Positions 1,774 to 58,088 of a stretch of DNA of 64,000 nt are shown here, piece after piece (the stretch's first letter is position 1; the number at the start of each line of letters is the position of its first letter). Both the position numbers and the translations under genes were made by a program. The notes under the pieces were generated by a model. It ran no database searches, was not told the origin of the DNA, and saw only the letters and a list, made by a program, of their open reading frames with translations. The DNA is from Leucoraja ocellata (lineage: Eukaryota), in contig JAWMAR010000076.1 in assembly GCA_036785375.1 (NCBI GenBank), forward strand, positions 7,874,001 to 7,938,000, given 5' to 3'.

Positions 1774-2124
1774 GTCTAACAGCAAACACAGTCATGATCC
1801 AATCCCCAGGAGCTCTGGTGGTGCGTGAAGGTGAAACAGTGGAGATACGGTGTGTCCTGAACAGCACCAATGTGAAAGTCATTGTGAAATCATTCCACGT
1901 TCACTGGTACAACTCACGTAATGGAGGAATCAAACTTAGTCTTTTGGTCAATGGCATCACTTACAGGTCACTGGGCTTCTCCGAGCGATTTCAGCTTTCC
2001 AGGAACGTCACCAGTAACAGCTACTCACTGACCATCAGAGAGGTGAAGATTGCCGACTCTGCTGATTACATCTGTGGCCTTTGGGGGGTTTTATTTGGAG
2101 ATGGAACCAAGCTGAATGTAACCA
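1774..2124 (+). CDS. Gene A exon V1: Ig V-set domain with in-exon J-like G strand
   Basis: TAG acceptor ends 1773, GTGAGT donor at 2125; 351 nt, phase 1-1, open. Translation LTANTVMIQSPGALVVREGETVEIRC..VHWY..RF..YSLTIREVKIADSADYICGLWGVLFGDGTKLNVT has both Cys, the Trp, DxAxYxC and FGxG. Confidence 0.88.
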
Positions 2125-2214
2125 GTGAGTATTTAAATTGGTTCTATTTCCAATCCTAACATCATGAGGAATCATGATGTCATGTTGTCAGTTTTACAGA
2201 GACAAACAATGTAA

Positions 2215-2700
2215 AGATTTACTAGAATGTTGCCTGAGTTTCAGCAACTAAGTTACAGAGAAAGGTTGAACAAGTTAGGGCTTTATTCTTTGGAGCGCAG
2301 AAGGTTAAGGGGGGACTTGATAGAGGTTTTTAAAATGATGAGAGGGATAGACAGAGTTGACGTGGAAAAGCTTTTCCCACTGAGAGTAGGGAAGATTCAA
2401 ACAAGGGGACATGACATGAGAATTAAGGGACTGAAGTTTAGGGGTAACATGAGGGGGAACTTCTTTACTCAGAGAGTGGTAGCGGTGTGGAATGAGCTTC
2501 CAGTGAAGGTGGTGGAGGCAGGTTCGTTTTTATCATTTAATAATAAATTGGATAGTTATATGGATGGGAAGGGAATGGAGGGTTATGGTCTGAGCGCAGG
2601 TATATGGGACTAGGGGAGATTATGTGTTCGGCACGGACTAGAAGGGTCAAGATGGACTGTTTCCGTGCTGTAATTGTTATATGGTTATATGGTTATAACA
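2215..2700 (+). mobile_element. CR1 LINE 3' fragment
   Basis: ORF 2227-2613 (YRERLNKLGLYSLERRRLRGDLIEVFK..FFTQRVV..WN); TTATATGG tail repeats. Confidence 0.9.
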
Positions 2701-3502
2701 TCATTAGAAGTTCACACTGCAAAATAGAGAATGAAAATAGGCCAAATTTATTTTTAACTGAATAATGCAGATCATTCGTTACTGCGTTCTGAGATCAGGA
2801 TGGAGAATGTAATTTGGCATTGCCATAGAGGTACACATAGTGTGAACAGATGAATGTAAAGAAATTACAGTATAGGTAGGCTAGTTTCTTCATTTATAAT
2901 CACTTTGCTTGAGTTTACCTTATCATGTCTACCGAGGTACAGTGAAAAGCTTTTGTTGCCTGCTAACCAGTCAACAATATATGATTACAATCGAGCCATT
3001 CACAGTTTATGCACAGTCACTATTAGTTGCACCATCTGCCACACTGAGATCAATAACTCAATGGTCAGCATGGGCTCAGTAGACTGAAGGACCTGTTTCC
3101 GTGCTGCATCTCTACACTAAAGTGAACTAACATTACCACCTCAATGATCTATCTGTGCTATTTCCATACCCTCTTATTGCTCCAATATACAGAGATCTGC
3201 TTATCTCTGTGTAGAAGGCAACCAAGGACTAAATAAACGACTAAACCAAGCTAAATGAAAAATGAAATCCCCATTGTGAGGCAACACCGGAGGGAGAAAA
3301 AGAGAAAGAGAGACTGAAAGATAATCGTGAACAGTTGCAATCAGCTGCAATCATGATTTTAATATCAGATACTAACCAAGTTAGCATCACTTTTACATGA
3401 GGTTATCTAATGTCAAAGGATGAATGTATTTTAAGTTGAAACATATGAAGTATTTAGCAACTACAACATTATTGTTCATCTATTGATATTTTCCCTTTCA
3501 AG

Positions 3503-3847
3503 TTGCAAATCCTCCGATCCTGATCCAATCCCCGAGGCTGGAGCGTGTCACTGAGGGTCACACGGCACGGTTACGGTGCTCCATGGAGAACGCTGAAGTG
3601 GGAAACACTGATGTCCACTGGTACCGAGAACTACCCGGGCAGGACATGGAGTGGGTTTTAACACACGAGGCAGGAGGCAGCATACGAAGGAGACCAGGCT
3701 TCACTGAGCGGTTCCAGTCGTCCAAAGACGCCTCCAACAGCAGCTTCATCCTGACGGTCACAAACGTGACGCTCAATGACTCTGCCGTCTATTACTGCAC
3801 AGTGTGGGGAGATATCAGAGGGAATGGAACACAGGTCAACGTAACCA
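3503..3847 (+). CDS. Gene A exon V2: Ig V-set (VJ-type) domain
   Basis: ttccctttcaAG acceptor, GTGAGT donor at 3848; 345 nt, phase 1-1, open: ANPPILIQSPRLERVTEGHTARLRC..VHWYRELPGQDMEW..DSAVYYCTVWGDIRGNGTQVNVT. Confidence 0.9.
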
Positions 3848-4309
3848 GTGAGTACAAATTATAGTTGGTTTTATTAACCTATGTGTAACTATATTGGGTC
3901 TAATTCACTTCCCTTGATTAGGCACATGAGCCGGAATTACTGAAAGATTAAGGAGATAATACCGGAGCCCTGATTTTGGAGACCAAAACATTGTGGCCCC
4001 GCACTAATGGTGTGAGCACTGATATGGTAACGGATGTCAGATCTGGGTTGTGGGAAATAAATTTCAATGTGCAGTGTGTTCTTCATTGTAGAGAAAACTA
4101 GAAATAGTGTTCAGTGCTCAGTGTAATAGCAGGGCACCGCTCACAGCTGTTTGAGTTAAGGTACAGGAGAGCAGAACTACAACTTGTCATGGCTTTAGAT
4201 TAACCAATGCTGCCTCCTTATTTCAATGGTTCAATAGTTCTTTATATGTCACATATGCAACTGGGCAGTGAAATTATTTTTGCATATATTACACATGCTG
4301 GCATGGCCA

Positions 4310-5946: not shown

Positions 5947-6749
5947 TAGGGTCAACGTGGATGTATGAAATAGACATCATGGTTGAGGAATATTTTAAAG
6001 CTCACATTGTTAGATGTTTGTAACTAGCAAAGTAGGGTTGGGTTTTTCAATGAGCCATACGGAGACAGTAGCTGTAGATGAGATTGACCATTATTCATCA
6101 CAAGCAGACACATAGATGGAAGAATCTCCTGGAGGAACTAGAATTAGCAGCAGGTATTCAAGCTGAGAGGCTGTGACTAGTGATTGGTGGTGCAGGGTTT
6201 GGTGCTGGAACCCTCACTGTTCACAATCGAGGATGAGGAGATCAAGTATAATATATCCAGGTTAGTTGGTAGGTGATGCAACATGTGAGGAGGCTGCAGG
6301 AGGCACAGGCAAGTATAAAGAGCAGGACAAGCCAGATGGACTATATCTTGGAAAAATATAATCATTCACTTCTGTAAGGAAAACACACATGCAAAGTATT
6401 TTTTTGAATGTTGTTAGACTGTAATGTCAGAAGAATCTGGGTGTTCATATACACAAAATAACTTAAGATAAACATGTAGATTGAATGAGCAGTTTAGAAG
6501 GCAATCAATATATATTTTTTAAAAAGGCACAAGCCTTTTAAGAGTAACTTAAAAGGTCAGCCAGCAAGTCTAGAGAAGGTATATATCTGACATCCTCGAT
6601 AATCTTACTCTTCAATTATCCTGAGCATCCCTGGGCAGTATGTGGTGGGATTCAAATTTTAGAATCTGTTATACACTAAATGCTGGAAAAATATGATGCT
6701 TTCCATTGAGCTCCATGTATATCCACATAGTATGAAAGATACATCTTCT

Positions 6750-7573
6750 AGATGCACTGGGACGCATCCTCAATAATGTGACCTGGGGTCATCGGGTGTT
6801 TCAGGTCTCACAACATCAGGCACCCTCGCCAAGGCGTCCCAGCCAGGGTTGATCAGGTCCCAACTTGCGTCCAAGCAGCAACCGCCCACGGATCAGCCCT
6901 CTTAATCCAAAGCCACCTAGTGGCTTTCTCTGTGGCTTCGCTTGCGGATTGAATGGTCCTCTTCTTTGCCAGCCCCGTAAAGCCCAACTGGTTGAGGACT
7001 TTCAGAGTGAGCGTCCTGCAAAGCCTCTACAGCCCATCTCTATGGGATCATAGTATGTCTTCCAGCCTCTGTCCTGGCACATCTCCACCAGTTCCTGGTA
7101 CTTTGCACGTATCATCTCGTTAGCCTCTTCAATACGCTCTTCTCAGGGCACTGTCAGCTCCAGAATGATCAGCTGTTTTGTCACTTCGGAGGTGATGATC
7201 ATGTCTGGCCGGAGTGATGTTGCTGTGATGTGCTGTGGAAATTTCAGCTGTTTGCCCAGATCGACATGCAGCTGCCAGTCAGTGGCTGTGTAGAGGAGGC
7301 CCGTCCTTGTTTTTGGTTGTGGTCGAGGCTTCTCTCCAGCTTTGACAAATGTGATTGATTTCTATGGGGCGTTGTGGTGTTTGCTGTTACCAATGGCAGT
7401 GGCTATGCTCGCAGCAACCACCTTGAGCACCTGATCATGGCGCAGCCAATAGCAACCTTCCCCAAGGGACTTTGGACAGCTGATGAGGAGATGTTCTAAT
7501 GATCCTCTGCCTGAGCCCCACCGTCCTGTTCTCACACTCTTCCTCCACACCTGCTCGGACCTCTTCCTGAGCC
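6750..7573 (-). mobile_element. 5'-truncated Hero-like non-LTR retrotransposon (REL endonuclease C-terminus)
   Basis: Minus strand reads QEEVRAGVEEE..SLEHLLISCPKSLGEGCYWLRHDQVLK and LRPDMIITSEVTKQLIILELTVP (PD..E motif). Clade assignment is from recalled motifs. Confidence 0.7.
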
Positions 7574-7688
7574 ATGAACAACAGTAACATTCTGACCATC
7601 ACCAATGTCTCCATCAATGACACTGCTGTCTACAACTGCAGTGTGTGGAGTTACATCTATGGAGCAGGGTCCCAGCTCAATGTAACTG
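7574..7688 (+). pseudogene. Gene A exon V3 remnant (3' third only)
   Basis: NSNILTITNVSINDTAVYNCSVWSYIYGAGSQLNVT followed by a GTAAGT donor at 7689. It abuts a Hero-like LINE; I found no acceptor or B/C strands upstream. Confidence 0.8.
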
Positions 7689-13150: not shown

Positions 13151-13528
13151 AACAAACCCATTGCCAGACCAGGGTTATTTGCCAACTCTATTTTTAGGTT
13201 CTGTTTTATAATTCCTCCTGGATGAGTGAGATTACTATGATTATCATTTCATCATTAAAAACCATCAGCATGTTTAAATCTATGTTGTGGTGGTTCCTAA
13301 GGGTCGTGCCATTATACTGCCGAACCCCTCGGCACAGGAGTGGCGCAGTCCGGAGGCAGTCCTTAGCCGGAGGGTATAAAAGGCAGGGTTTGGGTGCCAT
13401 CTTTTCCTGGTTTCGTCTTCCCCTGAACCGGGAGGAATTAAAGTAAAGTGCTTCTCAAACTTCGGACTACTTGCCTCATTTTGAGACCCACGCACTACAT
13501 TGGTGACCCCCGACGCTCCATTGGCATC

Positions 13529-14482
13529 ATGATGGAGACAGAACAAAGCCCTACCTCTTCACACGCCAGCCCGACCCTGTCTCTGGACGCGGTCTCCGTG
13601 AAACTGCCCAGCTTCTGGACCACACGGCCGCTCATCTGGTTCCAGCAGGCGGAGGCCCAGTTCAACCTGCGGGGCATCACGGTCGATGCCACCCGCTTCT
13701 ATTACCTGGTGGGAGCCCTCGACCAGGATGCGGTGGAAGAAGTATCGGACTTCCTCGCAGCCCCCCCGGACAATGATAAATACCTCGGCCTGAAACAGCT
13801 CCTGCTCCAAATTTACGGACTAAGTAGGATGGAGCGGGCAGGTAGGATCCTGCATATGGGTGGCCTGGGCGACCGGCGGCCATCTACCCTCCTAAAGGAA
13901 ATGGTGGCGTTATTAGACGGGCACACGCCGTGCCTGTTGTTCGAGTACACTTACCTGCATCTGCTGCCGGCCTACATTCGATTGCAACTCACCGACGCCT
14001 CATTTGCCGACCTTCGGGCCCTCGGGAGGCGCGCCGAAGCCATGTGGTTGGTGCGCCCTGATGACGTCAGCGCGCTGGGCGTCAGCAGAGACGAGGTCGC
14101 GCTCAGGTCGACGCGCCCGGATGACGTCAACGCGCTGGCCGTCGGCAGGCACGCCGATGACGTCAACGCGCTGGCCGTCGGCAGGCACGCCGATGACGTC
14201 ACCCCAGCAACTCCCGATTTCCTCCGGTGGGGCGGGGGAGCTGTGGAAAGAGTGACAGCTCCAGCCCGACGGCCCGCACGATTACCCCCAGCGGCAGTGA
14301 GGGGTACTGCACCTGCAGTCCAGCGCCAGCAAGCTGCAGGCACCACCAGCAGGGGCAGGCAAGCTCCAAATAGCACAAACACAAGGAGCTGGTGCTATTT
14401 CCATCAGTGCTGGGGTGCTGCAGCACGACAATGCCGCCAGCCATGCACGTTCCCGGGAAACGCCTGGGCTGGCTGCCAATAG
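13529..14482 (+). CDS. gag: Gypsy Gag
   Basis: AVSVKLPSFW N-terminus; C-terminal CYFH-x9-C-x3-C (CHCC) knuckle; internal 36-bp repeats encoding ADDVNALAVGRH. Confidence 0.88.
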   Translation: MMETEQSPTSSHASPTLSLDAVSVKLPSFWTTRPLIWFQQAEAQFNLRGITVDATRFYYLVGALDQDAVEEVSDFLAAPPDNDKYLGLKQLLLQIYGLSRMERAGRILHMGGLGDRRPSTLLKEMVALLDGHTPCLLFEYTYLHLLPAYIRLQLTDASFADLRALGRRAEAMWLVRPDDVSALGVSRDEVALRSTRPDDVNALAVGRHADDVNALAVGRHADDVTPATPDFLRWGGGAVERVTAPARRPARLPPAAVRGTAPAVQRQQAAGTTSRGRQAPNSTNTRSWCYFHQCWGAAARQCRQPCTFPGNAWAGCQ

Positions 14483-17400
14483 TCCCCGCGGTGGCCGGCC
14501 AAATTCACCGCCTTTTCGCTTGGGATCGGCGCTCCGGGGCCCGCTTCCTCGTGGATACAGGAGCGGAGCTCAGCGTCCTGCCCCCTTCGCTGGCCGACAT
14601 TCGTTCCGGTAAGCGGGGGCCCGTCCTCACCGCGGCGAACGGCAGCCCCATCCGCACATATGGACTGCGCATGGTTCCCATCATGCTCGGCTCCTGCCAT
14701 TTTTCATGGAACTTCACCATTGCCGACGTCTCCCAACCATTGCTCGGGGCCGATTTTCTCCGGACGCATTCCCTCATGGTGGACGTCGGGCGTCAGCGTT
14801 TCGTCAACGCCACTACAATGGAGCCGATCACGTTGCGTTTGGATCAACCGGTGGGACGGCCACTGGCGTCCGTGGACTCCCGATTCGCACGAATCTTGGC
14901 TGCGTTCCCGGACATTCTCACTCCGCAGTTTCATTCAGCAACCCCCAGCCACGGAGTTGTACATTATATCCCGACTACCGGCCCACCGCTCCATGCACGA
15001 GCACGACGACTGCCACCAGATAAACTGCGTCTGGCACGGCGGGAATTCCGCACGATGGAGGCCTTGGGGATCGTCCGCCCTTCGAGCAGCCCTTGGGCGT
15101 CCCCACTCCACATGGTCCCTAAGTCAAGCGGGGGCTGGCGACCTTGTGGGGATTACCGATGGCTGAACGCTGCAACAACAGCGGATCGATTCCCCGTACC
15201 CCACATCCAGGATTTCACGGCCCATTTGGCTGGGGCCACATTTTTTTCAAAAGTGAATCTGGTGCGGGGTTATAATCAGATCCTGGTTCACCCGGATGAC
15301 GTACCCAAGACGGCTATCATCACGCCATTCGGGCTTTACGAGTTTACTCGGATGCCGTTCAGCCTCAAAAACGCTGCACAGGCCTTTCAACGCCTCATGG
15401 ATGGGGTGTGTCGTGACCTCGAATTCGTGTTCGTGTACCTGGATGACATCCTGGTGGCCAGCCGCTCGCAGCAGGAACACTGCGCTCACCTTCGACAGCT
15501 CTGTCAGCGGCTCAGCGAGCATGGTTTGGCCATCAACCTGGACAAGTGCCGTTTTGGGGTCAACGAAATTGACTTTCTCGGCCACCGCGTGACTGCGCAA
15601 GGCGCGGTTCCCCTGCCTGACAGGGTTGACGCCATCCGGCGGTTTCCCCGCCCACGCACGGTGCGTGGCCTGCAGGAATTTGTCGGCATGGTGACATTCT
15701 ACCATCGTTTCGTGCCATCCGCGGCCCACATCATGTATCAACTTCTGGCGGGTGGGCAGCAAAAGCGCGTTGAGTGGACCCACGAGGCGGAGGCAGCTTT
15801 CGACGGTGCAAAGGAGGCCCTTGCTCGGGCCGTGCTGCTGGTGCACCCACGGGAAGATGCCCCAACTGCTCTCACTGTGGACGCCTCGGAGTCGGCAGTT
15901 GGTGCTGTACTGGAGCAGCTGACAGGCGGAGTTTGGCGGCCTCTGGCCTTCTTCAGTCGGCACCTCAACCGCGCGCAGACCAAGTACAGCGCGTTCGATC
16001 GTGAGCTCCTGGCTCTGTACCTGGCTGTGCGCCATTTTTGTTTCTTCCTGGAGGGCCGCCTCTTCACCGCCTACACCGACCATAAGCCGCTCACTTTCGC
16101 CCTGCAGAAGGTTTCCGACCCCTGGTCCGCACGTCAGCAGCGGCAGTTGGCTTACATCTCCGAGTACACCACAGCCATCCGCTACGTCAAGGGGAAAGAG
16201 TACCGGGTGGCCGACGCATTGTCCCGCCCTGCTATAAATGCCGTGTTTGAGGTGGCGCCCGGATTGGACTATTCTGCTCTGGCGGCGGCACAGCTCACGG
16301 ACGACGAGGTGCCCACCTACCGGACTGCCATCTCCGGCCTCCGTCTTGAGGATGTCCCTCTCGGTCCTGGGGGTGTGACAATCCTGTGCGATGTGTCGTC
16401 CGGTCAGCCGCGCCCCATCGTCCCTGCCACCTGGCGCCGGAGAGTGTTCGAGGTGATCCACGGACTGGCTCACCCATCAATCCGGGCGACAACGGCACTG
16501 GTGGCAGCTCGCTTCATGTGGCACGGTCTGCGCAAGCAAGTTGCCCATTGGGCTCGCACCTGCATCCCGTGCCAGACGGCAAAAATCCAGCGCCATGTCC
16601 GCGCACCCCTCCAGGAGTTCGGTCTACCTCACCGGCGGTTCGACCATCTCCACGTGGACATTGTGGGGTCCCTTCGACCGTCCCGGGGCATCACCCACCT
16701 TTTGACCATGGTGGACCGCTTCACGCGGTGGCCGGAGGCCATTCCGTTGGCTGACACCTCATCGGCTACGTGTGCTCGTGCGTTGTCCGCGCACTGGATT
16801 GCTCGCTTCGGGGGGCCGGCACACATCTCCTCCGACCGGGGGCCACAGTTCACCTCCGAGCTGTGGTCAGCCATGGCTCGCTTGCTGGGGGTGCAGCTGC
16901 ACCACACCACGGCTTACCACCCGCAGGCTAACGGTCTGGTGGAGAGGTTCCACGGGCAGCTGAAGGCGGCATTGAAGGCACGGCTCACCGGCCCGGACTG
17001 GATGGACGAGTTGCCGTGGGTCATGCTGGGCATCCGGACCGCTCCCAAAGAGGACTTGGCCTCATCATCGGCGGAGCCGGTGTACGGGTCGACACTCACA
17101 GTGCCCGGGGAGTTCGTGCCGTCGGCGCCGGAGCAGCAGGAAACGCTCTCCTCCACCCTTCAACGCCTTCGCGAGCGAGTTGGCAGGCTCGCACCCGTCC
17201 CGACGTCCCGCCATGGGATATTTCACCCACACGTGCCAATGGCCCTCACGGACTGCCCGTACGTCTTCCTGCGCCGTGATGCCCACCGGACGCCACTCCA
17301 GAGGCCGTACGAGGGCCCGTTCCGGGTGCTGGAACACGGGCAGTCGACTTTTGTCCTGGACATGGGGGGCCGGCCGGAGGCCGTGTCGATTGACCGTTTA

Positions 17401-17727
17401 AAGCCGGCGCACCTGAACATTGACCAGCTGGTTGCTCAACCTCGGCCCCGAGGGCGCCCCCCCTCACGACTCCCTCCACCTGTCCCTCCACCTGTCCTCC
17501 CGCCGGTCCCTCGACCTGTCCCTCCACCTACGCCCCCGCAAGCCCCGGGATCTGCTGACTTCCGCACGCGGGCCGGCCGGGTCGTGCGCCCGCTGGTGCG
17601 TTTTGTGCCTCTGGTTCTGGGGGGGGGGGGTCCTGTGGCGGCTCCTAAGGGTCGTGCCATTATACTGCCGAACCCCTCGGCACAGGAGTGGCGCAGTCCG
17701 GAGGCGGTCCTTAGCCGGAGGGTATAA
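14455..17727 (+). CDS. pol: Gypsy Pol (PR-RT-RNaseH-IN) in the -1 frame
   Basis: LVDTGA protease, YLDD, RNase H DAS/YTDH, HHCC and DDE integrase (HVDIVG, SSDRG, LVERF). Slippery G GGA AAC at 14455-14461. Confidence 0.92.
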   Translation, partial: GKRLGWLPIVPAVAGQIHRLFAWDRRSGARFLVDTGAELSVLPPSLADIRSGKRGPVLTAANGSPIRTYGLRMVPIMLGSCHFSWNFTIADVSQPLLGADFLRTHSLMVDVGRQRFVNATTMEPITLRLDQPVGRPLASVDSRFARILAAFPDILTPQFHSATPSHGVVHYIPTTGPPLHARARRLPPDKLRLARREFRTMEALGIVRPSSSPWASPLHMVPKSSGGWRPCGDYRWLNAATTADRFPVPHIQDFTAHLAGATFFSKVNLVRGYNQILVHPDDVPKTAIITPFGLYEFTRMPFSLKNAAQAFQRLMDGVCRDLEFVFVYLDDILVASRSQQEHCAHLRQLCQRLSEHGLAINLDKCRFGVNEIDFLGHRVTAQGAVPLPDRVDAIRRFPRPRTVRGLQEFVGMVTFYHRFVPSAAHIMYQLLAGGQQKRVEWTHEAEAAFDGAKEALARAVLLVHPREDAPTALTVDASESAVGAVLEQLTGGVWRPLAFFSRHLNRAQTKYSAFDRELLALYLAVRHFCFFLEGRLFTAYTDHKPLTFALQKVSDPWSARQQRQLAYISEYTTAIRYVKGKEYRVADALSRPAINAVFEVAPGLDYSALAAAQLTDDEVPTYRTAISGLRLEDVPLGPGGVTILCDVSSGQPRPIVPATWRRRVFEVIHGLAHPSIRATTALVAARFMWHGLRKQVAHWARTCIPCQTAKIQRHVRAPLQEFGLPHRRFDHLHVDIVGSLRPSRGITHLLTMVDRFTRWPEAIPLADTSSATCARALSAHWIARFGGPAHISSDRGPQFTSELWSAMARLLGVQLHHTTAYHPQANGLVERFHGQLKAALKARLTGPDWMDELPWVMLGIRTAPKEDLASSSAEPVYGSTLTVPGEFVPSAPEQQETLSSTLQRLRERVGRLAPVPTSRHGIFHPHVPMALTDCPYVFLRRDAHRTPLQRPYEGPFRVLEHGQSTFVLDMGGRPEAVSIDRLKPAHLNIDQLVAQPRPRGRPPSRLPPPVPPPVLPPVPRPVPPPTPPQAPGSADFRTRAGRVVRPLVRFVPLVLGGGGPVAAPKGRAIILPNPSAQEWRSPEAVLSRRV

Positions 17728-18214
17728 AAGGCAGGGTTTGGGTGCCATCTTTTCCTGGTTTCGTCTTCCCCTGAACCGGGAGGAATTAAAGTAAAGTGCT
17801 TCTCAAACTTCGGACTACTTGCCTCATTTTGAGACCCACACACTACAATGTCATGCTTTATTAAATTTTACTCATCCATGGTCAATTGATGCAGTGTGTG
17901 ACGCATGGACTCGTGTCCATGGTATGAAATCACAGAGCTTTGAAATATTCACGTAGTCACTCACGTGACTCCGAAGTAAAATAGTAAGATTAAACAAGAA
18001 ATTACCAGTTTGAAGTTTGATCTTTATCTTATGAGGAGTTACCATGAGCCCATTCCTGTGCTGTGCACACATATGGCCCTAATCAAAAGGACTCCATTTT
18101 GCATGATTTAGTATGACTAATAAAATTCTACAAATTTAGTGTTAGATTCTGTGCACTCTTCAAGCATGACTGTGCTGAGTGTTTTTTTTAAGAAGACATA
18201 TTTTCCCATTAAAG

Positions 18215-20209
18215 ATGCAAATCCTTCGATCCTGATCTAATTCCCGAGGCTGGTAAGGATGACACGGCACGGTTACGGTGCTCCATGGAGAACATAGAAA
18301 ATAGGTGCAGGAGGAGGCCATTTGGCCCTTCGAGCCTGCACCGCCATTCATTGGGACCATGGCTGAACATCCGCAATCAATAACCCGTGCCTATCTTTTC
18401 CCCATATCCCTTGATTCCGCTAGCCCTTAGAGATCTAACTCTTGTAAATTCATTGTGAATTGGCCTCTACTGCCTTCTGTGGCAGAGAACTTCACAAATT
18501 CACAACACTCTGGGTGAAAAAGTTTTTTCTCATCTCAGTTATAAATGGCCTCCCCATTATTATTAGACTGTGGCCCCAAATATGTACACAATGCACCAGA
18601 ATTGGCCTCACCAATGCCTTGTACAATTCTAACATTACATCCCAACTTCTATACTCAAAGCTCAGATTTATAAAGGCCAGCACACCAAAAGATTTCTTTA
18701 CCACCCTATCTGCATGAGATTCCACCTTCAGGGAACTGTGCACAGTTATTCCTAGATATCTCTTTTCAACTGCATTCATCAATTCACTACCATTTACCAT
18801 GTACGTCTTATTTTGATTTGTCCTGCCAAGATGTAGCACCTCACACTTATCAGCATTTAACTCCATCCGCCATCTTTCAACCCACTCTTCCAAATGGCCT
18901 AAACCTCTCTGTAGACTTTGAAAATCTACTTCATTATCCACAACACCACCTATCTTAGTATCATCTGCATACTTACTAATCCAATTTACCACACCATCAT
19001 CCAGATCATTGATGTACATGACAAACAACAGTGGACCCAGATCCCTGTGGCATCCCACTAGCCACTGTCCTCCAACCTGACAAACAGCCATCCACCATTA
19101 CTCTTTGGCATCTCCCATTCAGCCACTGTTGAATCCATCTTGCTACTCCACCATTAATACCAAACAATTGAACCTTCTTAAGCAACCTTCCATGAGGAAC
19201 CTTGTCAAAGGCCTTACTGAAGTCCATATATACAACATCCACGGCTTTACCCTCATCAATTTTCCGAGTAACCTCTTCAAAAAATTCAAGAAGATGAGTC
19301 AAACATGATCTTCCAAGCACAAATCTATGTTGACTGTTCCTAATCCGACCCTGTTTATCCAGATGCTTATATATATTATCTCTAAGTATCTTTTCCATTA
19401 ATTTGCCCACCACTGACGTCAAACTAACAGGTCTATAATTGCTAGGTTTACTCTTAGAACCCTTTTTAAACAATGGAACAACATGCACAGTACGCCAATT
19501 CTCCGGCACTATTCCCATTTCTAATGACATTTGAAATATTTCTGTCATAGCCCCTGCTATTTCTATACTAACTTCCCTCAATATCTTAGGGAATATCCTG
19601 TCCTGACCTGGAGACTTATACAATTTTATATTTTTTAAAAAGAGTCAGTACTTCCTCTTCTTTGAATCTCATAGTTTCCATAGCTATTCTACTTGTTTCC
19701 CTTACCTCACATAATATCCTTCTCCTTGGTGAATACCGAAGAAAAGAAATTGTTCAATATCTCCCCCATCTATTTTGGCTCTGCAGATAGCTGTCCACTC
19801 TAACTCTCTAATGGACCAATTTTATCCCTCGTTATCCTTTTGCTATTAATATAGCTGTAGATGTCCTTCCTCAAATTAGCAGACCAAAACTACACACAAT
19901 ATTTCAGATGTGGTCTCACCAGGGCCCTGTACAACTGCAGAAGGACCTCTACTCCTGAAGTGGGAAACACTGACGTCCACTGGTACCGAGAACTACCCGG
20001 GCAGGACATGGAGTGGGTTTTAAAACACGAGGCTGGAGGCAGCGTACAAAGGAAACCAGGCTTCACTGAGCGGTTCCAGCCATTCAAAGACGCCTCCAGC
20101 AGCAGCTTCATCCTGAATGTCACAAACGTGATGCTCAATGACTCTGCTGTCTATTACTGCACAGTGTGGGGAGATATCAGAGGGAACGGGATCCAGATGA
20201 TTGGCATTA
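18215..20209 (+). pseudogene. Gene A exon V4, inactivated and split by CR1 insertions
   Basis: 5' piece 18215-18293 has a CAA>TAA stop and a 10-nt deletion relative to V2. 3' piece 19955-20209 reads EVGNTDVHWYRELPGQ..YYCTVWGDIRGNG, with a GTAAGT donor. CR1 sequence fills 18294-19954. Confidence 0.88.
18294..19954 (-). mobile_element. Two CR1 subfamilies, apparently nested, inserted in exon V4
   Basis: RT ORFs 18492-19091 (YADD) and 19006-19623. CATAGAAA tail of the other subfamily at 18293 and its RT piece at 19861-19954. Confidence 0.88.
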
Positions 20210-22435: not shown

Positions 22436-22570
22436 TTTCTCAAACGAAGGAGAATCAAGTTGCGGTGATGTACCTTGCCTGGATCATTCTACCTTTGGTG
22501 CTGGGAGTTCTTGCTGTTATTGGAGCCATTTGCCTCATCAGACGCAGAGCATCTGGAAGCCACCAGTCCT
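22436..22570 (+). CDS. Gene A transmembrane exon
   Basis: tttctttgcAG acceptor, GTATGT donor; 135 nt, phase 1-1: SQTKENQVAVMYLAWIILPLVLGVLAVIGAICLIRRRASGSHQS (uncharged TM, RRR stop-transfer). Paralogous to 50095-50229. Confidence 0.88.
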
Positions 22571-22735: not shown

Positions 22736-22809
22736 CCCAGTCTGGAGTGGATGATGATCAGACCCCAGGAGCAGATTATGAAAACATATCCGTGGCAAGA
22801 AATGTCCCG
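22736..22809 (+). CDS. Gene A cytoplasmic exon 1 (YENI motif)
   Basis: tttcacAG acceptor, GTGAGT donor; 74 nt, phase 1-0: SQSGVDDDQTPGADYENISVARNVP. Conserved in gene B. Confidence 0.85.
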
Positions 22810-22922: not shown

Positions 22923-24308
22923 TAGGCTGTGGGCCGATAAAATATAATTGAGAAGGATGTCATAACTCGTCAGTGCCAAACGTTGCACATTAATTAATTA
23001 AACTAATTAGAAAATGAGATTAAAAAATGTACGCGCCATCTAGTGTCCAATGCCCATATTACACCATGGAGTGCCTATTTCCGTGATGCAGTCTATTTAA
23101 ACTATATATTATTATACCATATATATATGACTTGTGAATATGACTATAAAATAATATAATTAATATAATATAATTTTTATAATATAATTCTTTGCGCTTT
23201 TTGACTGAGTGCCGCAGAGGTCCAGCTCCTGAACCAGCCTAATTAATGGGTGAGGGCAGTTCTTCTGGGTTCCCCTGTTTACTGAACCCCACTGACTACC
23301 AGTGTGCAGAATGGGGGTCATGGCCATAGTGGGACTGGGACCGTGCCAGGCTGGGAGAAAGGTAAGGCATCTTCCACTGAGAGGAAAATGCCTAACCCTA
23401 ACCCTAACTCGCCTCCCTTCCAGAGCTGCCCACGGCTGGAGCTGGTGCTGCTTTGGGACCGGCTGTGGGTTGCGTACGTGTGGCCACTCAGCGAGTCCAC
23501 CTCGGCCAGCATGCCCTTCTGGATCATTGTGGTGATGATGGTGGGGAGTAGCACTGCCTTGCATGCTGCCCAGGCCACCTTCAGCACCCCATAGCGCCAG
23601 CTCCGTCAGTCCGCCTGCTCGCTCGTTGCAATACCGGCCGGCCGACAACCTGACCGAACCCTCGCAGCACTCACAGGCCTACCAACTGCCTGACCGACCC
23701 CTCGCAGCATCCACTAGCGGTCCGTTCCCCGACCGATCCTCCACAGCATCCATCGGCCTACCGACAAGCCCGACCGACCGATTGACTGACCCTAACCCTG
23801 ACCCTGGCCATGACCCTAACCCTGACCCTAACCCTGACCCTAACCCTGAACCTAACCCTGAACCTAACCCTAATCCTAACCCTAGCTGTACATTTGTTAA
23901 TTATAATTTTTATTTAACATCCAAACTTTATATAGATAAATCAATTGAAAAACAAAATTATCAACAAGGTTAGCATTACCTTTATCCTTGGAAACCTTGT
24001 TATTGCTATTGATGTAATGAGGAGGCAGCCATGATCCCAGAGTCCTCGCTGCCTAGCGACCATAAAACAAACAGTATGCGGGATTGGTCAATTTGCGTCC
24101 GACCTTAATGTCAAACGTGTATTGATTGGACAATTACTACTCGGATAATTGGAAGTTTTTGTCATATTTAAATAAAATGTGCAGGTTTTGTTCTTGACGC
24201 GTTTCAGGTATGATTTATATTATATTTTTACACAATATGTTAAAAATTCAGGATAGTTCTGAGATGGGTCACGAACCTGAACGAAAAAGCTCCTCGGCCC
24301 ACAGACTA
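22923..24308. mobile_element. Non-autonomous DNA transposon (TAG..CTA termini, 3-bp TSD; Academ-like)
   Basis: 15-bp TIR TAGGCTGTGGGCCGA / TCGGCCCACAGACTA, TTG TSD; empty site in the paralogous gene B intron at about 49740. Confidence 0.8.
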
Positions 24309-24912: not shown

Positions 24913-24954
24913 AATTCAAGAGATCACCAGGCAGATCCAAACGCCATCTACATG
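24913..24954 (+). CDS. Gene A cytoplasmic exon 2 (first half of ITAM)
   Basis: ttgtAG acceptor, GTAAGA donor; 42 nt, phase 0-0: NSRDHQADPNAIYM. Paralog at 47192-47233. Confidence 0.82.
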
Positions 24955-25044: not shown

Positions 25045-25087
25045 GATTTACAAAGACCCACTCAGTCCATCTACGGTCATCTCGAAG
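25045..25087 (+). CDS. Gene A cytoplasmic exon 3 (second half of ITAM)
   Basis: ttttctgctAG acceptor, GTACGT donor; 43 nt, phase 0-1: DLQRPTQSIYGHLE. Paralog at 47059-47101. Confidence 0.82.
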
Positions 25088-31800: not shown

Positions 31801-33549
31801 TTCTGTCTATCCCTCCTGAATATTGAATATCCCTGGATGTTCATCTCCCAGCCTTGGTCACCCTGGAGCCATGTCTCCGTGATCCCAACTATATCATATT
31901 CATTAATAACTATCTGCACATTCAACTCATCCACCTTATTACGAATGCTCCTTGCATTAAGAAACAAAGCCTTCAGGCTTGTTTTTACAACACTCTTACC
32001 TCTTATACAATTATGTTGAAAAGTGGCCCTTTTTGATTTTTGCCCTGGATTTGTCTGACTGCCACTTTTACTTTTCACTATTGCTTCTACCCTCATTTTA
32101 CACCCCTCTGTCTCTCTGCTCTTGCACCCGTCCTCCCACCACATTAGTTTAAATCCTCCCCGACAGCACTAGCAAACACTCCCCCAAGGACATTGGTTCC
32201 GTTCCACCCAGGTGCAGACCGTCCTGTTTGTACTGGTCCCACCTCCCCCAGAACTGGTTCCAATGCCCTAGAAATTTGAATGCCCCCCCCGCACCATTTT
32301 TCAAGCCACGTATTCATCTGCAATATCCTCCTATTTCTACTCTGACTAGCCCGTGGTACTGGTAGTAATACAGAGATTATTACCTTCGAGGCCCTACTTT
32401 TAAGTTTATCTCCTAGCTCCCTAAATTCACCTTGCAGGACCTCATCCCTTTTTTTAATCTATATCGTTAGTGCCAATGTGCACCACGACAACTGGCTGTT
32501 CACCCTCCCCCTCCAGACTGTTCTGCAGCCATTCAGTGACATCCCTGACCCTTACACCAGGGAGGCAACATACCATCCTGGAGTCTCATTTGCGGCCGCA
32601 GAAACACCTATCTATTCCCCTTACAATTGAATCCCCTATTGCTATTGCCCTTCCAATTTTTTTTTCTCCCCTCCTGTGCTGCAGAGCCACCCATGGTGCC
32701 ATAAACTTGGCTGCTGCTGCCTTCCCCTGATGAGCCATATCCCCCAACAGTTTCCAAAATGGTATACCTGTTTAGGAGGGAGATAACCGCAGGGGACTCC
32801 TGCACTACCTGCCTACTGCTTTGCTGGCTAGTGGCCACCTGTTCCCTTTCTGTCCTCTTACCTTTTACCTGCGGTGTGACCAACTCACTGTACGTGCTAT
32901 CCACGACTTTCTCAGCATCGTGGATGCTCTAGTATGAATCCAGCCACAGTTCCAATCGTTCAATGTGGTCTGCCAGGAGCTGCAGCTGTACACACTTCCT
33001 GCAAACGTAGTCACCAGGGACACCGACCATATCCCTGATCTCCCACATGTTGCAGACTGATTAAACCACGGGGTCAATCTCCACTGACATGGCTTACCCC
33101 CAAATTAAATCAACACCCTCACACTATAAAAATCTTTATCCTTTAATCTGTACCTTTACTAATAAATACTGTACCCTTAACCTGAAAGCAGAAAGGCAAT
33201 CCTGGGGTTGCACCCAATCAGCTGCTTCCTCTGGTCCGCTTCCACCAATCAGAGGCTTCCAATCAGACCCCTTCTCTGGAAGTGTGATGGAACGCTGCAG
33301 ATCGGGTAACTCCTCCTCGCACTCGATTTTTAACTCACCGCCCAGGTAACTCCTCCTCTCGCTCCAACGGCTCCTCGGGCCTCTGTGAAAGCAAGCCCCA
33401 AGCTCGATTTTTAACTCACCGCCCAGGTAACTCCTTCTCTCGCTCCAACGGCTCCCTGGGTCTCTGTGAAAGCAAGCCCCAAGCTCGATTTTTAACTAAC
33501 CGCCCAGGTAACTCCTCCTCTCGCTCCAACGGCTCCCTGGGCCTCTGTG
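28894..33549 (-). mobile_element. Near full-length degenerate CR1 LINE (ORF1, APE, RT)
   Basis: RT 29304-30113; APE LNARS/GITETW/GDFN at 31347-32144; ORF1 remnants about 32200-33077; 81-bp tandem repeats 33322-33549 at the 5' end. Confidence 0.9.
31124..31329. mobile_element. Solo LTR inserted in CR1
   Basis: TG..CA, 206 bp, 5-bp TSD AGAAC on both sides; AATAAA on the minus strand. Confidence 0.8.
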
Positions 33550-43482: not shown

Positions 43483-43508
43483 TCAGATGTAGGACGTGCG
43501 TTTACTAC
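43483..43508 (-). CDS. Gene B terminal coding exon (GSKRTSYI-stop)
   Basis: ctgtttaattttgtttaagcAG acceptor, then (G)GT AGT AAA CGC ACG TCC TAC ATC TGA. Homologous to 28791 onward. Confidence 0.7.
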
Positions 43509-47058: not shown

Positions 47059-47101
47059 CTTGGATATGACCGTAGATGGACTGAGTGGGTCTTTGCAAAT
47101 C
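47059..47101 (-). CDS. Gene B cytoplasmic exon 3 (ITAM second half)
   Basis: 43 nt, AG/GTACGT: DLQRPTQSIYGHIQ. Confidence 0.82.
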
Positions 47102-47191: not shown

Positions 47192-47233
47192 CATGTAGAT
47201 GGTGTTTGGATCTGCCTGGTGATCTCCTGAATT
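47192..47233 (-). CDS. Gene B cytoplasmic exon 2 (ITAM first half)
   Basis: 42 nt, AG/GTAAGA: NSGDHQADPNTIYM. Confidence 0.82.
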
Positions 47234-47269
47234 CTACAACACAACACAATCGAACTGTTACTTTGGTCA

Positions 47270-49853: not shown

Positions 49854-49927
49854 CGGGACATTTCTTGCCACGGAAATGTTTTCATAATCTGCTCCTGGGG
49901 TCTGATCATCAGCCGCTCCGGACTGGG
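49854..49927 (-). CDS. Gene B cytoplasmic exon 1 (YENI)
   Basis: 74 nt, AG/GTGAGT: TQSGAADDQTPGADYENISVARNVP. Confidence 0.85.
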
Positions 49928-50094: not shown

Positions 50095-50229
50095 TGGACT
50101 GGTGGCTTCCAGAAGCTCTGCATCTGATGAGGCAAATGGCTCCAGTAACAGCAAGAACTCCCAGCACCAAAGGTAGAATGATCCAGGCAAGGTACATCAT
50201 CGCAACTTGATTCTCCTTTGTTTGAGAAA
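50095..50229 (-). CDS. Gene B transmembrane exon
   Basis: 135 nt, AG/GTATGT: SQTKENQVAMMYLAWIILPLVLGVLAVTGAICLIRCRASGSHQS. Confidence 0.88.
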
Positions 50230-51647: not shown

Positions 51648-51992
51648 CAGTGACATTGACCTGTGTTCCATTCCCTCTGATATCTCCCCACACTGTGCAG
51701 TAATAGACGGCAGAGTCATTGAGCATCACGTTTGTGACCGTCAGGATGAAGCTGCTGCTGGAGACGTCTTTGAACGGCTGGAACCGCTCAGTACAGCCTG
51801 GTTTCGTTCGTACCCTGCCTCCTGCCTCGTGTGTTAAAACCCACTCCATGTCCTGCCCGGGTAGTTCTCGATACCAGTGGACGTCAGTGTTTCCCACTTC
51901 AGCGTTCTCCATGGAGCAATATAACCGTGCCGTGTGACCCTCAGTGACACGGTCCAGCCTCGGGAATTGGATCAGGATTGGAGGATTTGCAT
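51648..51992 (-). CDS. Gene B V exon (positional paralog of A-V4), intact
   Basis: 345 nt, phase 1-1, open: DANPPILIQFPRLDRVTEGHTARLYC..YYCTVWGDIRGNGTQVNVT. Downstream intron gtaagttcagtttacacaatactaaa matches that of A-V4. Confidence 0.9.
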
Positions 51993-53095: not shown

Positions 53096-53096
53096 A

Positions 53097-53870: not shown

Positions 53871-54017
53871 GTTAATATCTATAATGACCCCAAAAATTTT
53901 AACTTCTTTCTGCAACCTCATTTATTCTTGGGCATTCAAGACCATGATACAACCAGTAAGTGTGCTCGCTACTGTGCACCATGGAGTATTCAGCAACATA
54001 CCCCTCACACCTCTGAG

Positions 54018-56508
54018 CAAAGATCCTAGAGGAGCAAGATAGACCACTCCTTCGAAATTCAATGGGCTGGCGTGTAGTATGTGACGGAACGTCACGGCCG
54101 CCATTTTTTAGTGCGACATGCGACTTCCGGTATGCCACCCGCTGTGATCCAAAGCAAAGATTATAGAGCTCCGCTATAATCTTTGATCCAAAGCAAAGAT
54201 CCTCGAGTATCTTGTAACGGGAACAGCCCCCTCCTTTGCGTAGTTTCCCTTGCATTGTATTGCTTTAACACACACTGCACAAAATTAAATTTAACGTATA
54301 CATATTATATATATTTATATGAATGTGTGTCTGTGTGTGAGAGGCAAGTTACAGATAGTTAAGTTTATTCTCATGGATCAGAAGCAACTTTGATTTAAAT
54401 AATCACTATTAATTTATTTGTCTTGTAAGATGATATACATAAACCATAAAGGNNNNNNNNNNNNNNNNNNNNNNNNNNNNNNNNNNNNNNNNNNNNNNNN
54501 NNNNNNNNNNNNNNNNNNNNNNNNNNNNNNNNNNNNNNNNNNNNNNNNNNNNNNNNNNNNNNNNNNNNNNNNNNNNNNNNNNNNNNNNNNNNNNNNNNNN
54601 NNNNNNNCATATGGATACATTTNNNNNNNNNNNNNNNNNNNNNNNNNNNNNNNNNNNNNNNNNNNNNNNNNNNNNNNNNNNNNNNNNNNNNNNNNNNNNN
54701 NNNNNNNNNNNNNNNNNNNNNNNNNNNNNNNNNNNNNNNNNNNNNNNNNNNGTAGAGGAACCAACGAGAGAGCAGGCTATTTTAGACTGGGTATTGAGTA
54801 ATGAGGACGGGTTAGTTAGCAATCTTGTTGTACGTGCCCCCTTGGGCAAGAGTGACCATAATATGGTTGAGTTCTTCATTAGGCAGGCAGTGACTAGTGG
54901 GGTACCGCAAGGCTCAGTACTGGGACCCAAGCTATTTACAATATATATTAATGATCTGGATGAGGGAATTGAAGGCAATATCTCCAAGTTTGCGGATGAC
55001 ACTAAGCTGGGGGGCAGTGTTAGCTGTGAGGAGGATGCTAGGAGACTGCAAGGTGACTTGGATAGGCTGGGTGAGTGGGCTAATGTTTGGCAGATGCAGT
55101 ATAATGTGGATAAATGTGAGGTTATCCATTTTGGTGGCAAAAACAGGAAAGCAGACTATTATCTAAATGGCGGCCGACTAGGAAAAGGGGAGATGCAGCG
55201 AGACCTGGGTGTCATGGTACACCAGGCATTGAAAGTAGGCATGCAGGTGCAGCAGGCAGTGAAGAAAGCGAATGGTATGTTAGCTTTCATAGCGAAAGGA
55301 TTTGAGTATAGGAGCAGGGAGGTTCTACTGCAGTTGTACATGGTCTTGGCGAGACCACACCTGGAGTATTGCGTACAGTTTTGGTCTCCAAATCTGAGGA
55401 AGGACATTATTGCCATAGAGGGAGTGCAGAGAAGGTTCACCAGACTGATTCCTGGGATGTCAGGACTGTCTTATGAAGAAAGACTGGATAGACTTGGTTT
55501 ATACTCTCTAGAATTTAGGAGATTGAGAGGGTATCTTATAGAAACTTACAAAATTCTTAAGGGGTTGGACAGGCTAGATGCAGGAAGATTGCTCCCGATG
55601 TTGGGGAAGTCCAGGACAAGGGGTCACAGCTTAAGGATAAGGGGGAAATCCTTTAAAACCGAGATGAGAAGAACCTTTTTCACATAGAGAGTGGTGAATC
55701 TCTGGAACACTCTGCCGCAGAGGGTAGTCGAGGCCAGTTCATTGGCTATATTTAAGAGAGAGTTAGATGTGGCCCTTGTGGCTAAGGGGATCAGAGGGTA
55801 TGGAGAGAAGGCAGGTACGGGATACTGAGTTGGATGATCAGCCATGATCATATTGAATGGCGTTGCAGGCTCGAAGGGCCGAATGGCCTACTCCTGCACC
55901 TAATTTCTATGTTTCTATGTTTCTATTATTTTCCAACGATCAATAGATTTATGATCAGTTCCTGTGGATTGGAGGATAGCTAATGCTATCCCACTTTTCA
56001 AGAAAGGAGCGAGAGAGAAAACGGGGAATTACAGACCAGTTAGCCTGACTTTAGTGGTGTGAAAGATGCTGGAGTCAATTATTAAAGATGTAATAATGGG
56101 GCAATTGGATAGCAGTAAAAGGATTAGTCCAAGTCAACATGGATTTATGATTTTACAATGCATTTAAGCCTCTCCCATTTTTATGAGATGAATTCCTGGA
56201 ATATGTAAGAAGTTTATTGTAACCTAGTGCTACTTGCCTGAACAATGGATGATATATCACTTAAATGCAATTGTTTTCAGTTGTGTGGAGAGACCTGTAT
56301 ATTGAAAATGCGTTTTGGCTCTAATATGTCAATTTACCTTAAATGTAGAAGAGCTTATTAAAATCTTCTTACAAAGAACATTAAGTATTTTCTATCTATC
56401 CTCTTTTGGACCCAAGGCATAGCAGAGCTGCCAACTCTCACGAAGAGGTAAGGGAGGGAGAGATGGAAGGGAGGGAGAGAGGGAAGGGAGGGAGATCGCG
56501 AAGAAAGG

Positions 56509-56542
<34 letters not shown>

Positions 56543-57492
56543 GAGAGAAGAGAGGGGAGCGAGAGATCGAGAGGAGGGGAGAGAGAGATCGAGAGAAGAG
56601 AGGGAGAAGGGGGGAGAGGGAGAAGGGGGAGGGAGAAGGGGAAAGGGGGGGACAGGGAGAAGGGGGGAGGGAGAAGAGGACAGGGACAAGGGGGAGAGGG
56701 AGAAGGGGGAGAGGGAGAGTGGAACGATAGCACATTATAACGCGCAGCCGTCCCATTCCGACCAAAGATTATAGAGCAGAGCTCCACTAGTATCTTTGAT
56801 TGCGGCCGCCGCCACCGAACCCCCCGACCCACCATTGCACCCAAAGATGATAGAGCAGAGTTATATAATATTTGATTGCACCCTTCTTCACGGCGGGCTT
56901 GTGATCTTTGCTTGTGATGTCTTGTACGTATGTGAGTGTTGTTTGCTACGTCCCTATGTTCGAGGAATATAATGGGTAACAGCCGCCCATTCTCGGACTT
57001 GAATCTGAGCTCGAAAAATCTCCTGGTCACTGGACCTAATGTGTCCGCGGGCCATATTGTGGAGACTAATCCCTTACAAAACAAAACCAAAAACGTACAG
57101 AAGTGTTAAAATTGTCTTTATTATTGTGGTGAGTAAAGAACTATTAAAAATAAGTCTAATAACTTTCTAATGTACCGACAAACCAAGTTTCCCAATGGCC
57201 GTTGATGGGAGAACAGAAAATAACATTTTCACGACAGAATATCGACTGAAAATAATAAAAATATTTTCTCACCTTTCTTTTTTATTGGGGAACCTAAAGA
57301 ATGACAGGTTGGGTCGTTTAGATTTACGATTAGAATACTTGATAGCAGAGCAGTGAGATGAAATTTAGATAAGGACGCCATGACAGTGTGGGGGAAGTCC
57401 AATAAATGCCTCGAAAAATGGCGTCGACGATCACACACGTCATACTACGCGTTTTTCGAGGAGTGGTCTATCTTGCTCCTCTAGGATCTTTG
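54018..57492. mobile_element. Non-autonomous P-like DNA transposon with nested CR1 (about 54752-56150)
   Basis: TIR of about 39 bp CAAAGATCCTAGAGGAGCAAGATAGACCACTCC; perfect 8-bp TSD CCTCTGAG (54010-54017, 57493-57500). Confidence 0.8.
56450..56720. repeat. Polypurine (GA/GGA-rich) low-complexity tract
   Basis: Almost purely A/G on +, includes (GA)n. Confidence 0.9.
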
Positions 57493-57743
57493 CCTCTGAG
57501 GAAGTAGAGGCTTTGATACATTTTCTTTGGGATTGTATCGATGTGGTGGGCCCAGGACAGATCATCAGAGATGAGTATGCTCGGGAACATGAAGCTATGG
57601 CCTCTCTCCTCCTCCATCCTACCGAGGTAGTCAGGTTAATGGACCCTTAACGTTCCCTTCCCAGGCAACAATCAGCTTCTTGAAGCTCATCCATTATTTT
57701 CCAATATGAAAGATGAATAAAACCACCAAAAAATTGTACTCAC

Positions 57744-58088
57744 TGGTTACGTTGAGTTGGGTTCCATTCCCCCTGATATCTCCCCACACTGTGCAGTAAT
57801 AGACGGCAGAGTCATTGAGCATCACGTTTGTGACCGTCAGGATTAAGCTGCTGTTGGAGGCGTCTTTGAACGGCTGGAACCGCTCAGTGTAGCCTGGTCT
57901 CCTTCGTACGCTGCCTCCTGCCTCGTGTGTTAAAACCCACTCCATGTCCTGCCCGGGTAGTTCTCGGTACCAGTGGACGTCAGTGTTTCCCACTTCAGCG
58001 TTCTTCATGGAGCACTGTAACCGTGCCGTGTGACCCTCAGTGACACGCTCCAGCCTCGGGAATTGGATCAGGATCGGAGGATTTGCAA
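57744..58088 (-). CDS. Gene B V exon (positional paralog of A-V2)
   Basis: 345 nt, phase 1-1, open, AG/GTGAGT. 14 nt differences from A-V2 by manual count; upstream intron aligns to about 3390-3502. Confidence 0.9.

Follow-up and report, generated by a model that had tools for sequence, protein, structure and literature searches.

Genes in which a variable (V) and a joining (J) segment share a single exon have been sought as relics of the gene split by the RAG transposon (PMC12227049). Two such genes of the skate Leucoraja ocellata raise the question of whether an unsplit VJ exon must be ancestral, or whether it can also be derived from an antigen receptor. Genes A and B lie within contig JAWMAR010000076.1 of assembly GCA_036785375.1 (C76 hereafter), at C76:7874001-7938000, a stretch of 64,000 nucleotides referred to here as the window. 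The explanation favoured with moderate confidence is that A and B are single-pass receptors combining tandem pre-joined VJ domains with a spliced ITAM (immunoreceptor tyrosine-based activation motif), that they are the predicted activating partners in a paired receptor family of chondrichthyans, and that their V exon probably came from the germline-joined sigma-2 light chain. This account draws on direct observations of gene structure, tail splicing in a relative, a paired cluster, the range across cartilaginous fish, polymorphism of the distal domain and proximity to sigma-2.

Gene architecture and tail splicing

Comparison of the window with itself identifies gene A (plus strand) and gene B (minus strand) as inverted paralogues. 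Exon-by-exon assembly yields AG/GT ends, compatible phases and an open spliced frame for both, and six-frame scans place the V domains, transmembrane (TM) segments and tyrosine motifs where a first-pass annotation of the sequence had put them. The tail-to-tail pair and the intact, phase-matched exons of that annotation are thereby confirmed. Its V domain inventory requires correction. Gene A follows the order leader-V1-V2-TM-cyt1-cyt2-cyt3-end and has two usable V domains; V1 and V2 stand, and of the additional V3 and V4 listed for it, V3 is only a 3' remnant, found likewise on a second contig, C5, and V4 is disrupted by a stop codon, a frameshift and an insertion of a long interspersed nuclear element (LINE). 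The C5 copy of gene A showed no V4. Gene B reads leader-V1-V2-V2type-TM-cyt1-cyt2-cyt3-end, with three V domains; the V, TM and tail exons annotated for it are intact, and its leader and V1 lie 10-23 kb downstream of the window (V1 and leader at C76:7948760-7948410 and 7960678-7960630). The leader of gene A lies 19.4 kb upstream.

The TM segments of both genes are uncharged, V1 and V2 have two cysteines only, and in an AlphaFold model the two V domains fold as such, the TM forms a helix and the tail is disordered. The ITAM (YMDL-x7-YGHL/I) is created only when cyt2 is spliced to cyt3, with a phase-0 intron inside the first YxxL, a split typical of ITAMs according to a figure legend in PMC2110893. 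The annotated combination of an all-VJ tandem ectodomain, an uncharged TM and an intrinsic spliced ITAM is therefore supported, as is the absence of a C1 exon: no C1 match was found in 856 kb. Because the same tail is conserved in 25 database proteins, a chance origin of the observation is excluded.

The annotation had also named spliced reads joining the V, TM and tail exons as a check, and here the tail part holds. One 668-base contig from run X1, which comes from a related organism and is tentatively taken to be RNA, contains the TM-cyt1, cyt1-cyt2 and cyt2-cyt3 joints at GT..AG boundaries; the terminal-exon junction was not seen in reads. These data bear on the idea that A and B have begun to decay or were modelled wrongly, and that this species does not make their ITAM. 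In gene A two V exons are indeed dead and two retroelements have inserted, and one skate database model (P0013) stops at the TM exon. Nonetheless, frames are open and splice sites intact in both genes on C76, with matching exons on C5, the tail is spliced in the relative, and the ITAM is kept in 14 shark and ray species, so that decay is barely credible.

A paired receptor cluster

The annotated pair is real but not stand-alone. A scan of the whole span C76 7.484-8.740 Mb found six family genes, with no member beyond these six. Genes Z, A and B have ITAM tails, and gene C (6 V) and gene D (4 V) have tails with LYADI and TEYAAI, which we take to be an immunoreceptor tyrosine-based inhibition motif (ITIM) and switch motif (ITSM) on the basis of their consensus. 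The ITIM/ITSM genes carry the same V types as A and B and lie 50-170 kb away. Gene Z (C76:7835702-7844323) encodes one V domain and an ITAM, with YENN in place of YENI and a glutamate in the TM on both haplotypes. The sixth gene, 420 kb further, encodes two V domains, a long stalk, a TM and a short tail. The same genes occur in the same order on C5, which is probably the second haplotype, as its introns are about 98% identical to those of C76 (one, 96%). Similar ectodomains, opposite tails and clustering, the structural marks of a paired activating/inhibitory system, are present, and A and B are predicted to be its activating half. The activating family of the annotation is accordingly real in its ITAM genes, with the ITIM/ITSM siblings missed. 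V and J share one exon throughout, and a near-consensus heptamer-spacer-nonamer pattern for recombination signal sequences (RSS) gave 0 matches in 290 kb. Two weak V matches at C76 7.68-7.69 Mb were not confirmed by a follow-up scan and were dropped.

The long-stalk gene (C76:8533425-8564991) has features of its own. Its 1870-residue Asn/Ser/Gly-rich stalk is encoded in the same exon as V2 and contains 99 N-glycosylation sequons, and its short tail is devoid of tyrosine motifs. The V2 is 92% identical to that of the receptors and unchanged between haplotypes. An orthologue (P0059) exists in another skate, and a copy is present on C5. The protein is possibly a tether, decoy or ligand.

Diversification of the distal V domain

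Differences between C76 and C5 are concentrated in V1. In the four genes compared, 13-22 of 116 V1 residues differ (15 of 116 in gene A), against 3-8 of 114 in V2-type exons, 2-6 of 108 in V3 and none in the two V domains of the long-stalk gene. Gene Z was excluded from the V1 comparison because of its length difference. These V1 differences are mostly non-synonymous and fall in loops resembling complementarity-determining regions (CDRs): 87 changes at 1046 non-synonymous sites face 10 at 346 synonymous sites (Fisher p=3.5e-4). The ratio of non-synonymous to synonymous divergence (pN/pS) is 2.15 over all 28 V1 pairs, reaching about 5 in the CDR1- and CDR2-like windows, with 1.8 in CDR3 and 1.3 in the framework; V2-type and V3 domains give 0.52 and 0.68.

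Distribution and tail classes

The annotation proposed an elasmobranch receptor family, which indeed appears undescribed and proves wider, since it reaches the holocephalans. A search with V2 returned 106 proteins at E<=1e-10 among 257 candidates; 105 of these could be assigned to species, 22 in all, of sharks, rays and skates, and a single protein carries no species name. Among the 120 of 173 profile matches that were listed, all those with a species name are elasmobranch. Members from the elephant shark, one with three V domains and a TM, were found in an all-protein profile search, and no bony-vertebrate member occurs among the 30 named of at least 150 matches in that search. Long multi-V matches in a snake, a hake, a tree shrew and a lizard are interpreted as gene models in which tandem Ig segments have been fused, and not as orthologues.

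A tail census of 126 proteins from the V2 and profile searches, isoforms and partial models included, contains 99 with a TM, none of which has a charged residue in the TM core. Their tails comprise 25 with an ITAM, 49 of ITIM/ITSM type, 8 with a double YxN and 17 other or short; up to eight V domains stand in tandem. The double-YxN shark class, without ITAM or ITIM, includes P0069, P0073, P0078, P0081, P0084 and P0090 and was not found in the cluster of this genome. Searches of Pfam and PDB gave no match to the tails. Searches of the PDB by sequence and by fold brought up antibodies engineered with several V domains and gave no ranking of families, and the ESM Atlas returned generic V-set clusters only.

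No description of the family was found by full-text literature searches, one on six gene ids included, with the proviso that pertinent papers outside this coverage may name it; the accessible part of PMC6795676 mentions no such family. Paired V-type receptors with an intrinsic ITAM are a known kind; a family of this kind that spans the chondrichthyans and uses a light-chain VJ exon appears to be new.

Origin of the V domain

Outside the family itself, the genome's best matches are light-chain genes of the joined VJ-C form. Their relatives in the database fall into one cluster with a record that bears the name Ig sigma-2, the source of the label used here. Sigma-2 (also sigma-cart, type I or NS5) is joined in the germline of skates (PMC5192425) and of coelacanth, gar and turtle (PMC5985310), as it is in this genome. 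V2 aligns with three sigma-2 exons over 263-302 bases at about 60% DNA identity without gaps, compared with at most 79 aligned bases for ten other Ig and T cell receptor (TCR) V exons of the genome. When V regions are compared without J, 26 of the 27 family V domains are closer to sigma-2 than to any other domain outside the family, and the 27th is closest to a sigma-2-like shark light chain. An F.PSRD-like motif recurs in 20/27 family domains, 7/7 sigma-2 and 1/3 sigma-2-like chains, and in 0/46 other domains. Most family domains share the Cys-Trp-Cys spacing (13 and 58) of sigma-2, and both keep V and J joined within a single exon, the arrangement of skate sigma-2, and have a split leader of the same form. 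Sigma-2 is the nearest sequence relative of the family V.

Phylogenetic analysis gives the same placement. The family, sigma-2 and three sigma-2-like chains form one clade (support 97/85 with 83 rows, 95/87 with 51 rows), apart from NITR and SIRP-like rows. A coelacanth light chain groups with the family at 90/84 in the 83-row tree, which would suit a family nested inside sigma-2, but monophyly of sigma-2 is not rejected (p=0.42). Among eight approximately unbiased (AU) tests, the sole rejection, a marginal one (p=0.039), fell on the grouping of all light chains to the exclusion of the family. Most outgroup labels are our own reading of the sequences; the five NITR rows are unnamed teleost proteins and the SIRP-like rows come from lungfish only.

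The family nevertheless departs from the architecture of sigma-2, which has one V, then one C1 and no TM. It lacks C1, has tandem V domains, is membrane-bound with an ITAM or ITIM tail, and occupies another locus. Its junction measures 6 residues in 301/302 domains, versus 8-12 in sigma-2. The J motif, annotated as FGDG, RGNG or YGAG, holds in part, as the J Phe is kept in only 41/302 family domains, and a proline at the light-chain pairing position occurs in 0/302, with positions numbered by the standard scheme, which compare less well in V1. Given the fixed junction, the mostly lost J Phe and the absent pairing proline, the family domains are presumably unpaired.

This point weighs on the proposal that the genes encode lymphocyte co-receptors or surrogate light chains, in which V would pair with an IgH or TCR V domain and the tail would signal. 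Light-chain ancestry fits such a role, as does Tyr at Kabat 87 in 178/302 domains, and VpreB offers a precedent of a light-chain-derived, non-rearranging V. Apart from the lost pairing residues, tandem arrays of up to eight V domains and selection focused on the tip loops of V1 speak against it, and we consider the proposal very improbable.

A more serious alternative is a pre-RAG relic, whose V exon was never split and whose family would be sister to all antigen receptors, with sigma-2 seeming close because it is a slow, early-branching isotype. The unrooted split that joins the family with sigma-2 is compatible with a root on the family branch, the cluster has no RSS, and UrIg and UrIg2 have been described as such relics kept in cartilaginous fish (PMC12227049). 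Those genes resemble the family in their single-exon VJ, split leader, host group and homogenised tandem domains; according to the same source they differ in having C1 domains, a position in the MHC or antigen-receptor complex and a root outside Ig/TCR, whereas the family lacks C1, lies outside these complexes and groups with one light-chain isotype. Six member ids are absent from two supplement files of PMC12227049. Identity also argues against a relic, for the family averages 41% with sigma-2 (45% for V2-type domains) although it evolves fast, and sigma-2 averages 35% with lambda, 34% with kappa and 31% with sigma. In addition, no member outside cartilaginous fish occurs among the named matches. 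A relic is therefore unlikely, and the relevance to antigen-receptor origins suggested by the annotation is better framed in the opposite direction, as probable descent from a rearranging light-chain lineage.

Several observations weigh against the favoured explanation. The AU tests leave seven groupings unrejected at p=0.10-0.42, with little power on 98 columns, among them the family with SIRP-like (0.33), NITR (0.19) or both (0.13), with lambda/kappa (0.13) or TCR gamma (0.21), and sigma-2 without the family (0.42). The first and third of these would also suit a relic. The trees are unrooted and comprise rows other than NCR3, UrIg, PRARP, XMIV and MDIR. Sigma-2 genes sit on other contigs, so synteny gives no support, and the J-strand glycosylation site occurs in some true light chains as well. 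The V1 counts and the pairs behind the ratio of 2.15 are non-independent, with gene conversion among paralogues likely, and the haplotype status of C5 is itself drawn from intron identity. Gene Z holds an acidic TM residue. Splice support consists of a single contig from another species, in which no V-TM joint is listed, and a PolyA run (X11, about 6 in 100 read) gave 85 placed reads and no listed joint. With these points taken into account, recycling of the V exon from a sigma-2 light chain retains a slightly better than even standing.

Three divergent joined VJ-C light chains, P0236 (bamboo shark), P0246 (sevengill shark) and P0274 (coelacanth), share the J-strand asparagine of the family and are candidates for representing the donor lineage. 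With P0236 as query, no orthologue of it was found in this genome (best match 43%). Separately, NITR-type V and TCR alpha/delta V grouped at 98/99 in the 51-row tree, on few rows, hinting that NITR may likewise be innate receptors that stand near a single lineage of antigen receptors. At C5:19658154, about 19 Mb from the C5 copy of the cluster, lies an RSS-bearing V segment of the heavy chain.

Comparison with known receptor families

Intrinsic ITAMs on V-type receptors are known from NILT and some NITR (PMC3022915) and from CEACAM3 (PMC2110893). Teleost NILT share clustering, polymorphism and intrinsic ITAM or ITIMs within one family (PMC3022915), but their V domains have extra CX3C/CX6-7C cysteines and are NKp44-like (PMC3031540), in contrast to the two cysteines of V1 and V2. 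Skate MDIR are described as CD300/TREM/pIgR-like (PMC3031540), which sets them apart by description from the antigen-receptor-type VJ domains of the family. NITR resemble the family in VJ-type V domains, clustering and mostly ITIM with few ITAM tails (PMC3022915). They usually combine V with a V/C2 domain, whereas all family domains are V-set with a J strand. Beside NILT, the closest likeness of working is to CEACAM1/CEACAM3, with an ITAM spread over several short exons and split in phase 0, an ITIM/ITSM counterpart, a selected distal V and a pathogen-decoy logic (PMC2110893). CEACAMs have IgC-like domains and non-VJ N domains, unlike the family, and no evidence of homology was found, none having been sought. 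CD28 family members have a single V that generally lacks the J consensus (PMC11599192), as opposed to tandem VJ domains.

SIRP proteins are paired VJ receptors with an ITIM+ITSM tail, and lungfish SIRP-like proteins also have tandem V domains. The family differs in its 20% V identity to the lungfish proteins, its lack of C1 and its intrinsic ITAM; activation by SIRP-beta proceeds through a charged TM. NCR3 (NKp30), raised by the annotation as a possible identity, shares the single-exon VJ with a G-x-G J strand. It is otherwise described with one V, a TM arginine, adaptor signalling and an MHC class III location (PMC6514059), features that are absent from the family, where A and B have two and three V domains, an uncharged TM, their own ITAM and non-MHC neighbours; membership is not supported.

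The same comparisons address the possibility that the genes are divergent orthologues or ohnologues of a known family such as SIRP, NCR3/XMIV or NITR, with the likeness to sigma-2 due to convergence or an ancestral state. Several members bear the name SIRP-alpha-like, although the database names of homologues are automatic and inconsistent, and a cluster of the Atlas that carries the name NCR3-like reached a feature score of 0.95. The inhibitory tail is presumably like the generic ITIM+ITSM tail of SIRP-alpha, and the cluster block may be ohnologous to the human SIRP region. Set against this, mean V identity is 24% to NITR and 20% to lungfish SIRP-like domains, a lungfish SIRP-like V query gave 0 genome matches at E<=1e-4, the cluster included, and gapless DNA identity of 60% to sigma-2 is hard to reach by convergence. 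We regard membership in a known family as distinctly improbable.

Proposed mechanism and implications

Since the outer domains most resemble one antibody light-chain type, A and B are likely to be innate immune sensors recycled from an antibody gene. Under the favoured explanation, a sigma-2 exon with V and J already joined, in phase 1 at either end, would have landed beside TM and tail exons before the chimaera-elasmobranch split, an event that would date back over 400 million years. The exon would then have lost its C1 partner and multiplied in tandem, with V domains that may no longer pair with a heavy chain. V2 and V3 could serve as a conserved stalk raising V1, which would bind a variable ligand, most likely a microbial surface molecule or a self surface molecule mimicked by pathogens. 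ITAMs recruit Syk/ZAP70, and YENI has the form of a Grb2-type site. Clustering would lead Src kinases to phosphorylate the ITAM, with recruitment of Syk/ZAP70, YENI may add a Grb2-type site, and the inhibitory siblings would recruit SHP-1/2. Activating copies may counter pathogens that exploit the inhibitory ones, as CEACAM3 does relative to CEACAM1, and selection on V1 could come from pathogens or from a polymorphic self ligand.

A broader formulation, which we hold with about even confidence, is that a RAG-made, germline-fixed light-chain VJ exon was recycled into a whole innate paired system, with ITAM, ITIM/ITSM, Grb2-type and giant-stalk members, whose CDR-loop tip is still diversifying, by germline selection in place of somatic rearrangement. 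If so, adaptive immunity would have given rise to innate receptors, and the family could be the missing KIR/LILR-like receptors of sharks. An unsplit VJ exon apparently can also arise later, from a joined light chain, and is not by itself a sign of ancestry. Moreover, cartilaginous fish, for which descriptions of such receptors are few, gain with this locus an activating/inhibitory cluster that is compact, conserved and highly polymorphic. Its defined variable domain (V1) and tails make the ligand (MHC class I?), cell type and signalling directly testable.

Genomic neighbourhood and other features of the window

The order on C76 is a GULO-like gene (ALO domain), a nicotinic receptor alpha gene (alpha-2/4 type, which we take to be alpha-2), five receptor genes, a PAG-like adaptor, a PAQR gene, MCM3, stathmin, a TRIM gene and the long-stalk gene. 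The MHC-paralogon setting that the annotation had suggested checking is not found, the neighbours being GULO, CHRNA, PAQR, MCM3 and stathmin rather than MHC genes. MCM3, PAQR8 and four member ids are likewise absent from a supplementary file to PMC10751288, a study of the shark MHC, and PAQR8, MCM3 and STMN4 are reported together at the teleost IL-17A/F locus (PMC8276262).

Of the PAG1/LIME1-like TM adaptor adjoining the cluster, an exon (C76:8143135-8143890, minus strand) gives a weak Pfam PAG match (E=6e-4) and holds several tyrosine motifs; the gene may be an additional adaptor paralogue. Two coiled-coil genes lie upstream on the minus strand, at C76:7703794-7706874 and 7503513-7505591. In the horn shark, model P0054 has a fused C-terminal part that matches the former, which indicates the same neighbour there.

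Table 1. Exons of genes A and B and inserted elements, in window positions (LTR, long terminal repeat)
Feature	Positions	Strand	Evidence or remark
Gene A V1 exon: end of split leader and distal polymorphic VJ domain	1774..2124	+	AG/GT, open frame, V-set
Gene A V2 exon: conserved VJ domain, nearest to light-chain sigma-2	3503..3847	+	61% DNA identity to the genome's sigma-2 exon, 302 bases without gaps
Gene A V3 remnant: unusable, reduced to its 3' third but still with the donor	7571..7688	+	
Intronic Gypsy-type LTR retrotransposon, not part of the receptor	13286..17850	+	217-base repeats 97.7% alike
Gene A broken V4: 5' piece, with a frameshift and a stop codon	18215..18293	+	
LINE-type insertion splitting V4	18294..19954	-	RVT_1 and repeat matches
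Gene A broken V4, 3' piece	19955..20209	+	
Gene A stalk and uncharged TM exon	22436..22570	+	within X1 contig of the relative
Gene A cyt1 exon, YENI	22736..22809	+	
Gene A cyt2 exon, phase 0, with the first ITAM tyrosine in its final YM	24913..24954	+	
Gene A cyt3 exon, completes ITAM	25045..25087	+	
Gene A probable last coding exon, with a stop after three residues	28791..28801	+	from homology with DNA downstream of genes B and Z
Gene B likely terminal coding exon	43483..43508	-	from homology
Gene B cyt3 exon (second ITAM tyrosine)	47059..47101	-	
Gene B cyt2 exon	47192..47233	-	
Gene B cyt1 exon, YENI	49854..49927	-	
Gene B TM exon, uncharged	50095..50229	-	
Gene B membrane-proximal V2-type exon, intact	51648..51992	-	
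Gene B middle V2-type exon	57744..58088	-	

The Gypsy-type element is young, has nearly identical terminal repeats and retains gag-like and long pol frames. Telomere-like hexamer repeats occupy 23390-23890, within the intron that separates cyt1 from cyt2 in gene A. Between the two genes, at 33322-33549, lies an 81-base tandem repeat.

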